This document shows positions 7,906-14,539 of a stretch of 28,616 nucleotides of DNA, piece by piece (the stretch's first letter is position 1; each line of letters begins with the position of its first letter). The translations under genes were made by a program, and so were the position numbers. Source of the stretch: Eledone cirrhosa (taxonomy: Eukaryota); contig CAXHJY010001272.1 of assembly GCA_964016885.1 (NCBI GenBank), forward strand, positions 1-28,616. Reading direction: 5' to 3'. A model generated the notes under the pieces. It did no database searches, was not told the DNA's origin, and saw nothing but the letters and a program-made list of their open reading frames with translations.

Positions 7906-8011
7906 TCTCTCTCTCTCTCTCTCTCTCTCTCTCTCTCTCTCTCTCTCTCTCTCTCTCTCTCTCTCTCTCTCTCTCTCTATCTCTATCTATCTATCTATCT
8001 ATCTATCTATC
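7906..8011. repeat. (CT)n then (CTAT)n microsatellite, upstream flank of the LINE pair
   Basis: Direct reading. Confidence 0.95.
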
Positions 8012-8019
8012 TGTCTGTC

Positions 8020-8273
8020 TATATCAGCCTGTAGGTTGAGGAAAAGGAGGAGGAGAGGAAAGGAGTACAAACTCTTCGTACTCCTGGAGATGAGGGTTGC
8101 ACATTTTTTCGGGGGTATGTGTTACCCATATAAACTGTCTCCCCCTATTGGGGAAAATCGACTAATTTTTTAAATTGCATTTGTGATAACATTTTACACG
8201 TTTTTATTGTATGTAAACTTCCCCCTTTGTATTTGTCCCCTTCTTTTGTGCCCCTGTGGCTAATAAAGAAACA
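8020..8273 (+). mobile_element. 5'-truncated copy (last 4 ORF2 codons plus 3' UTR) of a related, diverged Tx1-like LINE
   Basis: TAT ATC AGC CTG TAG (YISL*) matches the ORF2 end TAC ATA AGC CTG TAG; colinear with 13849-14126, including GGGTTGCACA..TTCGGGGG, TGTAAACT.CCCCCTTT and AATAAA-GAAAC-TATC. Confidence 0.9.
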
Positions 8274-8541
8274 TATCTATCTATCTATCTATCTATCTAT
8301 CTATCTATCTATCTATCTCTCTACGATGGACACATGTGCTGAGCTCGCTCGGTAAGTTTTTGTTTAAATTCATACGGAAATTGTAAACTGTAAACTTTCA
8401 TTTTTGTATCATTTTGTAGAGGGACTGCCAGGTCAAATTTTGATCTGGTCGGTCTCTCAAAATATTCTGCGCCTTTGGGCGAAATAGTATTGTGAACATT
8501 TTATCTTTCGAAAAACTTCGAAAAACCCTATTTTGAGAAAA

Positions 8542-10401
8542 ATGGCGGAAGCATCTTCACCATCAATCAAAGAAGGAAAGGGGAAGTCATACTCACAGCT
8601 TCCCCCTGCCACTGTCACAGCAGCAGATGCCAAAGGCAGAGGTCAGAGAGAGGAAGAATTGTCTTCACCTGTTGACCGACCACTAGATGTAGCCACAACT
8701 ACACAAGAATTTGAAAACAACAACAACAACAACAACAACAACGACAACAACAGCAACAATAAAGACAGCAAAAACAACAACAACACAAACGTCACAAGTA
8801 TCCACACACGAAACGAGAAAGACAACAACAACAACAAAGATGAAAACAACTCAAACGACGAGAAACAAAACAATACTAATATCCAAAACGAAAACAAAAT
8901 ATCTTTTGCACAGACGGCTAAATTATCAGTCGCTTATGTGCTGGAAGATATTTCAAAAGCAAAAGAAATGCTGGAAAAAGCCAAGAAATATGTGTCTTTT
9001 GGCGAAAACGGATCGTTTTCTATACATTCACCTCCGGAGCTAAAAAGACAGACGGAATTACGAACTGTCGTATTCCGAACAATTTTAAATAAAACAAAGA
9101 AACCAGCGCAACCATCTCAAGCAGAAACTCAGTTAGTCTTGAAAGACGTGATGAGAGACATCACTTTCATACAAAAGGATAAACTCTATGGGAGTTTATC
9201 CATATTGATGAAAGACGAATTGGCGGCAAAAAAATACTCTGTGTCGCCAATTCGGTCCACACACTACACCTTCTTCCCCACCTACATGGGTAAAAAAACC
9301 CAGAGGATATGGATAACCACCATCACCCCAAACATAAACTACTGGTGGTTACTAACCGGTTTCCTCAATTTAGACGAGGACAACCTCATCTCAATAGGGA
9401 AGGCATCCGGCGACGCGTTCAGTGGAACGAGCCTCGAAGTTCTGACCCAAATAAGGCCAGAACGCATCGCCCAAATCCCTGAGCGCGTCATGCTGGATGA
9501 CCGTACCCACCTCAACATTATTGTGGAGGGTAGGCGTCCCTCCTGTTACCTCTGTGGCAATAGAGGTCACCTGAGGGCTGCCTGTCCCCAGCTCACACAG
9601 AAAAAAACACTGCTACCAACACCAACACCACCCCCACCCCAACTACAACAACAAAAACAACCACAACAACAACAAAAACCAACAACCCCACCACCACCAC
9701 CACCACAACAACAACAACAAACACGTGAAAAAATAACACAGAATACTGTCCCACCCAATCCCTCCCCACCCAAAACAAATACAAAAACACGCACACCGCA
9801 AACACTACCAGAAAACATACCCCTCCCACCCAACAAGGAAGACGAACCTCTTTCGTCGCAAGACGAAAAAGATCCCTTCCAACAAGTAAAAAGAAAGAAG
9901 AGGAGACGCACCACAGACACACATGTTAACTTTAACCCCCCCCAAGAGAACACAAACTACACACAAACCACCCCTCCCTGTCACACAACACTAACTGCTA
10001 CACAAAAAAAGACATTACAATACACATACATGAACACAGACAACAAAGAATTACGGAAAACAATTTCAGCAAACCCTTCGGTCCAAACTGAAGGGCCAAA
10101 CTTTATAACTGCTGTGGGACTACCTCATTTGAAAATGATAAAAGTCCCAATGCACTTGTACAAAACACTGAAAATAAATTTCACGGAGGACGTGGGCCCC
10201 CCCTGCGCCAAACCAATCAACCGCGTCCTCCTAAAAAATTTCACCCCCCCACCCCACCCAGACACCCACTCAACGACAAACACCCCAACCCCACAACACA
10301 CCGATGCCCCTTCACTTCCACAAACCACCACCCCACCCAACAACCCATCCCCAACCAGCATGGAAATTGAGCGGCCCGTTTCCCGGGACGCAGAGAGGTA
10401 A
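8542..10401 (+). CDS. LINE ORF1p, gag-like nucleic-acid-binding protein (~619 aa from ATG 8542)
   Basis: ATG in AAAATGG context; CCHC zinc knuckle CYLCGNRGHLRAAC (9544-9585); poly-N and P/Q/T-rich disordered tracts; basic KRKKRRR stretch; lies directly upstream of the RT ORF. Confidence 0.88.
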   Translation: MAEASSPSIKEGKGKSYSQLPPATVTAADAKGRGQREEELSSPVDRPLDVATTTQEFENNNNNNNNNDNNSNNKDSKNNNNTNVTSIHTRNEKDNNNNKDENNSNDEKQNNTNIQNENKISFAQTAKLSVAYVLEDISKAKEMLEKAKKYVSFGENGSFSIHSPPELKRQTELRTVVFRTILNKTKKPAQPSQAETQLVLKDVMRDITFIQKDKLYGSLSILMKDELAAKKYSVSPIRSTHYTFFPTYMGKKTQRIWITTITPNINYWWLLTGFLNLDEDNLISIGKASGDAFSGTSLEVLTQIRPERIAQIPERVMLDDRTHLNIIVEGRRPSCYLCGNRGHLRAACPQLTQKKTLLPTPTPPPPQLQQQKQPQQQQKPTTPPPPPPQQQQQTREKITQNTVPPNPSPPKTNTKTRTPQTLPENIPLPPNKEDEPLSSQDEKDPFQQVKRKKRRRTTDTHVNFNPPQENTNYTQTTPPCHTTLTATQKKTLQYTYMNTDNKELRKTISANPSVQTEGPNFITAVGLPHLKMIKVPMHLYKTLKINFTEDVGPPCAKPINRVLLKNFTPPPHPDTHSTTNTPTPQHTDAPSLPQTTTPPNNPSPTSMEIERPVSRDAER

Positions 10402-13400: not shown

Positions 13401-13863
13401 GCTCTACAGACACGGGCGCCCGGGTAGGGACCCCGCCAAAAAGATCTGTCCCAGATGCGTGTGCGACGAGGAAACCGTTGCACACGCATTGGTACACTGC
13501 TCGGGCGTAGCCGATCTGTGGGGCTATGTCGAACAACTGCTGTCAAGGGTGGGACCGATCCGGTTGACCACCGAGTCTATTGTAATGATCAAGCCGCCTC
13601 CCCCCTTCAAAGATGAAGCAGAGGCGGTGTTTCTGTGCGTAATAGCCATGGCGAAAGAGGTTGTATGGTGGACGCGTCTGAAAGGACTGAGGTCAGGCAC
13701 CTTTCTCTCTGGCCAACAACTGGTCCGTTTCTTCCGATATCATTTCGGAAGAAGGATCAGGATGGAGAGAGAGGTGCTGCACCCCAGTCGTTTTTATGAA
13801 AGGTGGGTGAAAGTGGCGAGAATGGCCCGTGTGAATGGGCCTTCTTTTTACATAAGCCTGTAG
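10426..13863 (+). CDS. LINE ORF2p: AP-endonuclease, reverse transcriptase and C-terminal CCHC zinc finger (~1145 aa from ATG 10426)
   Basis: APE motifs CLNARGL, ICE, AYAP, GDWN, LDRF, SDH; Tx1/L1-type GPGYWKLN; RT motifs KSPGLDGLP, FRPITLLN, DQSKAFDRVDH, RQGCPLS, YADD (12481-12492); GGLG; CPRC-x8-H-x4-C. No stops or frameshifts. Confidence 0.97.
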   Translation: MAVLRVGCLNARGLGSSWKQAMLLNDLRSQSINVMVICEARISSMRQLAPTFDDFEMHASLCQPGGGGGVVVLLQKHMGLATQIVHLDPGGRLVVLDLGSGEGRALRLIAAYAPFGTERPDFFQRLESFLGTSRSLLLVGDWNGILDARWDYAGACPDREGCNSLKGLLGRFDLADRFRLDFPTVPTWSWSNRSGSSRSYLDRFLVRNKDRDFLSCPEMLMVGYSDHKLVTCMVNLDRTHRQGPGYWKLNLSLPASRAYRNRISTLVKERLTGAIVNSRWWVSLKREIRVVSIEFSKVLAADRNRKERELIDRVEEAIRSGDVARVLASRTALSQFFDAKHEGCVVRSKIRALGNEGAKAVSWARVTEANSGTKSTIRSLRDLDGRAILEPKQMCEAFQRHFARLFGRGGEPVGNVDFGPYLDGLPRLSDREAKSCEEPISAAEIEDVLGQCGKRKSPGLDGLPYELYLAMPDLFPDLLEAVYCNWQQNGRIPCTVTKGVVTLVRKDENKGDEISNFRPITLLNTELQILAKVLAKRLALVVGNLVGDAQTCAIPSRSIHDNLHLMRYIIERVGNEPGFGGALINLDQSKAFDRVDHGYLNAVLAAAGFGPVFRGWITAMHSSRICSRVKVNGYLSEPFKIARSIRQGCPLSSLLYVLTLEPLLRKLELLQGIPLEPGLRKAVSAYADDVTVMVSTASEIEAVGTLLEEYEKFTGAKLNRDKSIGLQLGTWRGRPMPSDGVVGRWTEGPVKLLGVWFGPDLQVEKNWAEVTNRVFALTQKWASCKLSLKGRAEVANTYIASVIYYRLTVVPCPRETLTKMERAVFQFLWKGRAPMVRRSICCQHPSKGGLGMPWLMMRKHALRLRHLYVFLTGQPVWASFVRRTFPRLVSLTELQSWVKQRPRKLGAWHTECAQALTALWQADPVISGDSTATFYRGLVRSRCDDALGEALDMEEDELASLFGRTFSPGPMDNFQKSLAWQCYRGALPVRERLYRHGRPGRDPAKKICPRCVCDEETVAHALVHCSGVADLWGYVEQLLSRVGPIRLTTESIVMIKPPPPFKDEAEAVFLCVIAMAKEVVWWTRLKGLRSGTFLSGQQLVRFFRYHFGRRIRMEREVLHPSRFYERWVKVARMARVNGPSFYISL

Positions 13864-14113
13864 GTGGAAAAGAGGAAGGAACGAGGGAGCACCCCCTCTC
13901 TGTGCTCCTGAGGAAAAGGGTTGCACACTTTTTTCGGGGGTGTGTGCGACCCCCCAAGGCGCCTCCTCTCTATTGAGGATTTTGTTAAAAATTTTATTTT
14001 TGTTATATCTTATTTTATTTTTATATTTTGTTATTGCCTCCTCCTTATTGAGGACGCCTTTTTGTGTAAACTCCCCCCTTTGTACTTGTCCCACTTTTGA
14101 TGCCCTAGTGGCA

Positions 14114-14119
14114 AATAAA
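14114..14119 (+). promoter_or_regulatory. Polyadenylation signal AATAAA at the LINE 3' end (homologous signal at 8262-8267)
   Basis: Conserved in both copies, 6-7 nt before the (TATC)n junction. Confidence 0.6.
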
Positions 14120-14539
14120 AGAAACTTATCTATCTATCTATCTATCTATCTATCTATCTATCTATCTATCTGACTCTGTTTACCATTCTCTCTGGTCTGT
14201 AGGTTTCTATTTGCATAGTAAATTGCTTCAGTTCTGTTTGATTCACCCCGTCCCTAAGACAGCCTCCTTTTCTACAACTACTCTCTCTCTCTCTCTCTCT
14301 CTCTCTTGTTCACACACCGTCCCTCTCTCTCTCTCTCTCACTCTCTCTCTCTCTTGCACTCTTTTATTCTCATTCTCTTACTCACCCTCTCATCAATTGT
14401 CATCCCTATTCCTCTCCCTGTTTCCCTTTACCTCTTCCTACAACCCTCTCACATCCTCATTCTACTCTCCTCATACCACTCCTGTATATTTATTTCTGCT
14501 TCCTCAATCTGTTTCGGTCTATCTGTCTCTGTTTGCATG

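Follow-up and report, generated by a model that had tools for sequence, protein, structure and literature searches.

An Intact Tx1-Type LINE of Eledone cirrhosa with a Strong Preference for TATC Repeats

Structure of the Locus

A long interspersed nuclear element (LINE), here called element A, was analyzed in a stretch of 28,616 nucleotides (nt) of Eledone cirrhosa DNA (contig CAXHJY010001272.1 of assembly GCA_964016885.1, forward strand), referred to as the window. Element A is intact, has two open reading frames (ORFs), is of the apurinic/apyrimidinic endonuclease–reverse transcriptase (APE–RT) type, and occupies positions 8325–14126; all features of the locus lie on the plus strand. It stands in a (TATC)n tract behind a fragment of a sister family, family B.

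The family B fragment (8018–8273) is a 5'-truncated copy of 256 nt that consists essentially of 3' untranslated region (UTR). Upstream of it lies (TATC)7 with TGTC units (7984–8017), in a compound tract of (TC)n, (TATC)7, and (TGTC)2 that was likely its target. The fragment terminates in AATAAAGAAACA at 8273, and (TATC)11 (8274–8317) begins at the next base. This repeat is the 5' part of the tract that element A entered and includes the 5' copy of the target duplication. Element A terminates in AATAAAAGAAACT at 14126, without poly(A) and in the same phase as the B fragment, and the 3' part of the tract, again (TATC)11 (14127–14170), opens with the target duplication. The 3' ends of the two copies could be aligned with a mean column identity of 81%. 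An allele without element A, described below, carries the B fragment as the earlier insertion, is identical over the (TATC)7 region, and has a single (TATC)16 in place of the divided tract. The 7-nt target-like leader TCTCTAC (8318–8324) belongs to element A, because it is missing from this empty allele and directly precedes 22 of the 42 full-length copies analyzed.

The 5' UTR of element A (217 nt, 8325–8541) showed 99–100% identity from its first base in 40 of the 40 matches listed. ORF1 (8542–10401; 619 amino acids, aa) and ORF2 (10426–13863; 1145 aa) are both open and are separated by a spacer of 24 nt. ORF1 has low-complexity ends and a CCHC zinc knuckle at aa 334–350; its match to Pfam zf-CCHC was weak (E 0.0034, under the curated cut-off). 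The ORF1 fold, predicted from one sequence, reached a predicted local distance difference test (pLDDT) value of only 30, and look-alikes in the Atlas (scores 0.90–0.92) carry zf-CCHC and RRM/ZCCHC3-type domains. ORF1 of the Tx1 clade typically has an RNA-binding domain and a zinc knuckle; the core of the present ORF1 may be RNA-binding.

ORF2 contains an APE domain (about aa 1–235; residues N10, E39, Y113, D141/N143, D202, and D226/H227), an RT with the motif YADD at aa 686, and a C-terminal CCHC motif, with Pfam matches to Exo_endo_phos, RVT_1, and zf-RVT. This is the layout of the Tx1 clade, and in alignments the APE and RT catalytic motifs matched those of human L1 ORF2p and Xenopus Tx1L. 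The 3' UTR (263 nt, 13864–14126) has AATAAA at 14114–14119 and the fixed end GAAACT. A small terminal hairpin was predicted at about 14094–14121 (z −2.15 for the whole 3' UTR). The Rfam search of the window gave no match.

Clade Placement

The closest named protein was from Argonauta hians, with 67% over the RT. The RT tree was a quick IQ-TREE analysis of 58 rows (one dropped) with no bootstrap or one-clade test, and its rows lack vertebrate L1, Kibi, Koshi, Keno, and Dewa. One group with a support of 100 comprised element A, the argonaut protein, family B, and a further, unnamed protein. This octopod group sits inside a 29-row group with Tx1L (Shimodaira–Hasegawa approximate likelihood ratio test 97), away from plant L1s. 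The bit score of ORF2 was 316 with Tx1L and 169 with human L1. Element A groups with the Tx1 clade rather than with L1.

An initial annotation, made from the sequence of the window alone, had described an intact Tx1-clade LINE and two diverged family members lying head-to-tail in one TATC tract. The Tx1 affinity agreed with the tree and the bit scores, and both ORFs were indeed open. The head-to-tail arrangement in one phase was confirmed from the sequence and the 3' end alignment. The upstream member is a real diverged relative, as stated, but only a truncated copy of a young family of its own.

Insertion Sites across the Genome

The 3' ends of the family were counted genome-wide, and 1932 were found with a 30-nt stem. 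With a 28-nt stem, 1652 ends continued as NN-TATCT and 239 as NN-TATAT; the shares of about 85% and about 12% are approximate, because the stem lengths differ between the counts. The third letter after GAAA was not T in only 12 ends (26-nt stem). Background DNA, 200 kb in all and evenly spread, had TATCT as 0.24% and TATAT as 2.4% of its 5-mers, and TATCT was preferred about 70-fold per site. (TA)n is 35 times commoner than (TATC)n in background bases, yet it was used less as a target. The TATC content was 1.4% in the window and 0.2% in the background. Junction letters 3, 4, 5, and 7 were identical in 87–89 of 89 copies.

The two letters after GAAA co-vary with subfamily markers and are therefore RNA-derived. 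The third letter matched the target in five off-target copies (L287, L291, L292, L293, and L295), so the duplication starts there. A nick one base further inward (T^ATCT) was also considered, since a C at the third letter in family B copies had the look of an inherited variant. It was dropped: a third letter C occurred in just 30 of 2986 family B copies (four of them from one tandem array), and these copies had no private marker and fit later mutation. No TATC tail was added in L065, L082, and the B copy L110, which occupy unique sites (with a single TATC in L065 and L082), and TATC is missing from the 3' junction of the (TA)n-site copies L074, L085, and L233. Poly(A) straight after GAAA gave 0 matches with a pattern that is blind to ends of CA plus an A run.

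Upstream flanks were examined in 100 long loci. Four had no recognised 3' end, and seven (L067, L096, L100, L206, L217, L220, and L238) were excluded because their rows were mis-anchored, rearranged, or inverted. The 89 copies analyzed comprised 46 truncated copies (22 best BLAST hits and the 24 first matches listed on C1), 42 full-length copies, and L242, which is in neither class. The truncated copies were the decisive set, because their upstream flank cannot be element-encoded. A TATC tract, defined as at least 8 nt of TATC repeat within 30 nt upstream, was present in 23 of these 46; (TA)n was present in 7, a single TATC in 5, and neither in 11. Tract positions made up 212 of 79,760 in the background (0.27%), which gives an enrichment of about 190-fold. 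The repeat lay on the opposite strand in 0 of 46. Exclusion of 10 copies, each stacked behind the end of another family member, left 15 of 36 with a TATC tract. At TATCT junctions, a tract was found in 23 of 34 copies versus 96 of 940 background TATCT sites, so the tract counts beyond the 5-mer.

Duplications of at least 7 nt of the copy's own flank were found in 33 of 46 truncated copies, compared with a mean of 15.1 (maximum 24) in 2000 flank swaps. Duplications with non-repeat letters numbered 17 versus 2.3 (maximum 7). The target duplications begin at TAT(C/A)T, with the first T past the fixed end of the element, and are mostly 7–19 nt long, including a few letters of microhomology. Most copies are flanked on either side by TATC or TA sequence. 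TATC lay upstream of 39 of the 42 full-length copies, and a target-like leader of 5–24 nt follows the duplication. The copies were often stacked: 49 of 89 had a relative within 200 nt versus 57 of 1000 background windows, and 60 of 61 stacked flanks were co-oriented.

The (TATC)n run is the target and not a tail. The preference for TATC is strong, with (TA)n as a side-target, and is not a strict GATA specificity. The initial annotation had proposed a GATA-repeat-specific family without poly(A). The preference stood, and the upstream flanks were not random: half of the truncated copies have TATC tracts, and target duplications are present. The strict specificity did not stand, as roughly 1 in 8 copies lies at TATAT, L065 and L082 occupy a single TATC in unique DNA, and 11 truncated copies have neither repeat. 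The lack of poly(A) held for nearly all copies, with the A-rich exceptions given below.

Empty Allele

The unique DNA 3' of element A had only one other match in the assembly, C6. C6 is collinear with window positions 3370–28,596, with scattered substitutions and repeat-length differences (among 4974 upstream columns, mismatches numbered 15 and gap openings 25). At this locus, the B fragment is followed by (TATC)16 and then by the same unique DNA, without element A. The filled allele gained 24 nt of repeat (11 + 11 versus 16 units) plus the 7-nt leader. The simplest reading is that these are two haplotypes, with B inserted first and A later into the tract behind B. A second empty allele was sought for the C1751 copy, whose flank is itself a repeat, and none was found; the public runs yielded no empty site for a unique-context copy.

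A 32-nt tandem array at window positions 25,034–25,923 also differs in length between the window and C6. Short dispersed repeat copies resembling short interspersed nuclear elements, about 85% alike and on both strands, were seen at 934–1461 and 21,953–22,960.

Age and Subfamilies

Element A was compared with 35 other full-length A-type copies, from which it differed by a median of 27 substitutions. It has 7 sites unlike all 35 others; three of these are amino-acid changes, none of them in a catalytic motif. Both ORFs were long and open in 18 of the 35 copies. The ratio of nonsynonymous to synonymous substitution rates (dN/dS) of ORF2 between A and B was 0.165. The recent activity suggested initially was supported by these open copies and by the empty allele. 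Intact ORFs, young copies, and a presence/absence polymorphism together make element A a candidate for current activity.

The family B fragment has not decayed, with 99–100% identity in 40 of the 40 genomic matches listed, and B-type ends reached 2986 genome-wide with one end pattern alone. Family B is a separate young sister family. Subfamily D (L061, L062, L077, L084, L232, L234, and L240, full-length copies elsewhere in the assembly) is a mosaic. It is about 99% identical to element A from ORF2 codon ~225 on and differs 5' of there in the 5' UTR, ORF1 (57% aa), and endonuclease (88% aa). Its leader also differs, mostly ending CTCTGG, and its TATC target is unchanged; both ORFs were open in 3 of 7 copies. 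The endonucleases of A, D, and B differ in 12–17% of residues, and the target is common to all three.

Several further observations concern the wider family. In L164–L193 (C1), the last ~231 nt match element A and diverge just upstream, near the ORF2 stop, which may reflect a further subfamily or a 3' swap. At least five more sister families with 3' ends of their own were seen in the flanks of fetched loci (e.g., L227, L120, L033, and L112). Their ends have a GCC-N5-GGC-like hairpin before AATAAA, and all enter ATCT in one phase; the outline of the terminal hairpin is conserved across sister families. Family copies were amplified in a 138-nt tandem unit at C67:14129–14571 (L280–L283) and multiplied by a repeated segment of ~60 kb at C12 17.06–17.46 Mb (L027–L030); both slightly raise the copy counts. 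In a second organism (run X4), contigs covered 29 of 30 bins of window 7990–14,290 at 95% or more, and ORF1 pieces of 318–453 nt showed 1–3 differences from element A. A close relative may carry a nearly identical element, or a transfer may have taken place. Relatives were also searched for in metagenome contigs, and none were found there.

Proposed Mechanism of Target Choice

The most probable reading is that element A, an intact young Tx1-type LINE, entered a (TATC)n tract that already lay behind an older sister fragment, and that its family enters TAT(C/A)T sites in a single orientation and phase, likely through APE nicking of the GATA-reading strand. Cleavage of the bottom strand by the ORF2 protein would fall at 5'-AGATA^N-3' and less often at 5'-ATATA^N-3'. 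Reverse transcription would begin directly at the fixed end, with no tail being copied, and the top strand would be cut about 14 nt further on. The target-like leader (5–24 nt) of full-length RNAs may help 5' joining by pairing. Each insertion would duplicate part of the tract and leave fresh landing sites on both sides; head-to-tail, co-oriented piles would arise because a polar target is duplicated at each insertion. Endonuclease choice is favoured because no tail units are added, because the upstream context counts, and because the Tx1L endonuclease is specific in vitro. The endonuclease itself would then be site-specific.

Several observations weigh against this interpretation. Apart from the 11 of 46 truncated copies with neither repeat upstream, the duplication match was absent in 8 of 46, and L069, L089, and L223 have no duplication. 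L075, L223, and L249 have no matching 5' tract, and L242 has a long 3' TATC run with unique 5' DNA. The presence of (TA)n upstream of 7 of 46 copies was not clearly over its 7.7% background (p 0.06). The value of 39 of 42 for full-length copies overstates the targeting, because their 5' flank is partly carried by the element; L198 and L228 brought a TATC-like leader of 16–24 nt into (TA)n sites. At 2 of 12 exceptional junctions, L296 (C1 near 138.806 Mb) and L299 (C2 near 286.216 Mb), CA is followed by an A-rich run at an off-target site, one of them in an (AAT)n tract, which hints that some transcripts may be polyadenylated right at the fixed end. The empty allele comes from one assembly, and window 1–3369 has no counterpart in the sequence that precedes the allelic region on C6, either because the haplotypes differ in structure or because the contig has a chimeric end.

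The last two points also bear on whether C6 is a pre-insertion allele at all. It could instead reflect collapse of the assembly or a deletion that took place later, when the two TATC tracts recombined, and the contigs of the public runs fail to bridge the tracts. This was considered improbable. The flanks differ in many substitutions and repeat lengths, like two haplotypes; the 16-unit tract of C6 exceeds either 11-unit flanking tract and has no leader; and just 7 sites set element A apart from all 35 copies, which fits a young insertion. Even if true, it would leave the genome-wide junction counts standing. The reading of the TATC run as an element-encoded tail, with little insertion preference and with survival or pile-up in microsatellite-rich DNA, has already been largely refuted and is very improbable. 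It would account for the single phase in which all families end, for the 3' runs of L242, L075, and L249 without a 5' tract, and for the TATC-richness of the window. However, (TATC)16 is already present in the empty allele, 239 copies lie at TATAT with no TATC at the junction, the flanks of truncated copies are enriched on one strand only, and (TA)n is less used despite its abundance.

The main rival to endonuclease choice is pairing between RNA and primer. The targeting would then be real and set mainly by RNA–DNA pairing: a relaxed endonuclease would cut at numerous AT-rich sites, and extension would be limited to primers with GATA or TATA at their end, which would pair with read-through UAUC at the 3' end of the RNA. 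The near-invariant junction phase agrees with this, as do the target-like 5' leaders of full-length RNAs and the target shared by divergent endonucleases. All source loci precede TATC, so read-through RNA would include it, and an effect of 3' repeats on nicking or priming in RTE elements has been discussed (PMC13295347). Pairing, however, predicts extra TATC units, and L065, L082, L110, L074, L085, and L233 have none. The tract context enriched upstream of the nick is beyond the reach of the RNA, and in two copies an A run comes straight after CA, a hint that this is where some RNAs end. The Tx1L endonuclease, moreover, is specific in vitro, with a contribution from its hairpin loop (PMC1950540). 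RNA–DNA pairing as the main determinant was therefore judged rather unlikely, and site-specific nicking by the endonuclease is preferred.

The mechanism of APE-type microsatellite targeting is not well understood (PMC3812793). The lineage is suitable for such mechanism tests: it offers near-identical intact copies, thousands of sites, a mapped boundary, and a pre-insertion allele, and its sister subfamilies with 83–88% identical endonucleases would aid them. GATA-type markers in these animals can hold multi-kilobase presence/absence insertions. A further and tentative possibility is an uncatalogued, mobile octopod Tx1 lineage whose GATA targeting arose separately from that of Kibi and Koshi. 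Its endonuclease would read a tetranucleotide tract; since every insertion duplicates some of the tract and takes a TATC leader to new places, the lineage would multiply its own targets and be a main source of the GATA repeats of the genome. If true, the natural exchanges of ORF1 and endonuclease in subfamily D, along with sister lineages that use other targets, would form a ready series for mapping microsatellite choice by APE.

Comparison with Known Elements

Human L1 shares with the A family the ORF2 layout, duplications of like length, and 5' truncation; one 5' inversion (L067) and untemplated letters (L092) are also L1-like. L1 copies a poly(A) tail, whereas the A family ends at a fixed point with no tail and uses a TAT(C/A)T site. 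The L1 nick is at TTTT/AA (PMC1950540). Xenopus Tx1L (YTX2_XENLA, P0324) likewise has two ORFs and the APE–RT–CCHC order, and all catalytic motifs align. It differs in lying in a separate subgroup of the tree and in a hairpin loop two residues longer than that of element A. The target of Tx1L is one site in the Tx1D transposon (PMC1950540, PMC4494074).

In Octopus vulgaris, 13 recently active L1-Tx1 families have been reported, and octopus L1-Tx1 elements have been described elsewhere (PMC13282606, PMC8967140). The A lineage may be among them. These papers, as excerpted, contain no target analysis, and neither "GATA" nor "target" appears anywhere in the main text of PMC13282606. The excerpts of PMC5753468 and PMC13295347 name no TATC target. 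A LINE targeting TATC/GATA was not found in the literature searched, in a search that covered paper excerpts and lay outside Repbase, Dfam, and supplements.

Waldo (ACAY), Mino (AC), and Dong (TAA) target microsatellites (PMC3812793), and Togen targets a TG repeat (PMC4640811). These are likewise microsatellite-targeting elements without long terminal repeats, with other units and from the R1 clade or groups with restriction-like endonucleases. Within the Tx1 clade, Kibi targets (TC)n and Koshi (TTC)n in teleosts, and crocodilian Tx1 families target (TTCC)n/(TTTC)n (PMC4494074, PMC3812793). The sequence searches brought up no entry named Kibi, Koshi, Keno, or Dewa. Like the A family, these are APE LINEs that favour microsatellites, with the pyrimidine-rich strand as the element sense strand. 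By comparison with their descriptions, the A family differs in its TATC/GATA unit, its (TA)n side-target, and its octopod host; its junctions are TAT(C/A)T and not (TC)n, (TTC)n, (TTCC)n, or (TTTC)n. A working definition of microsatellite targeting is one sequence type in >20% of flanks (PMC4494074), and TATC exceeds this level in both the truncated and the full-length copies. TATC/GATA likely adds a new target repeat to the known microsatellite-seeking habit; to a specialist, the target unit would be new and the behaviour expected.

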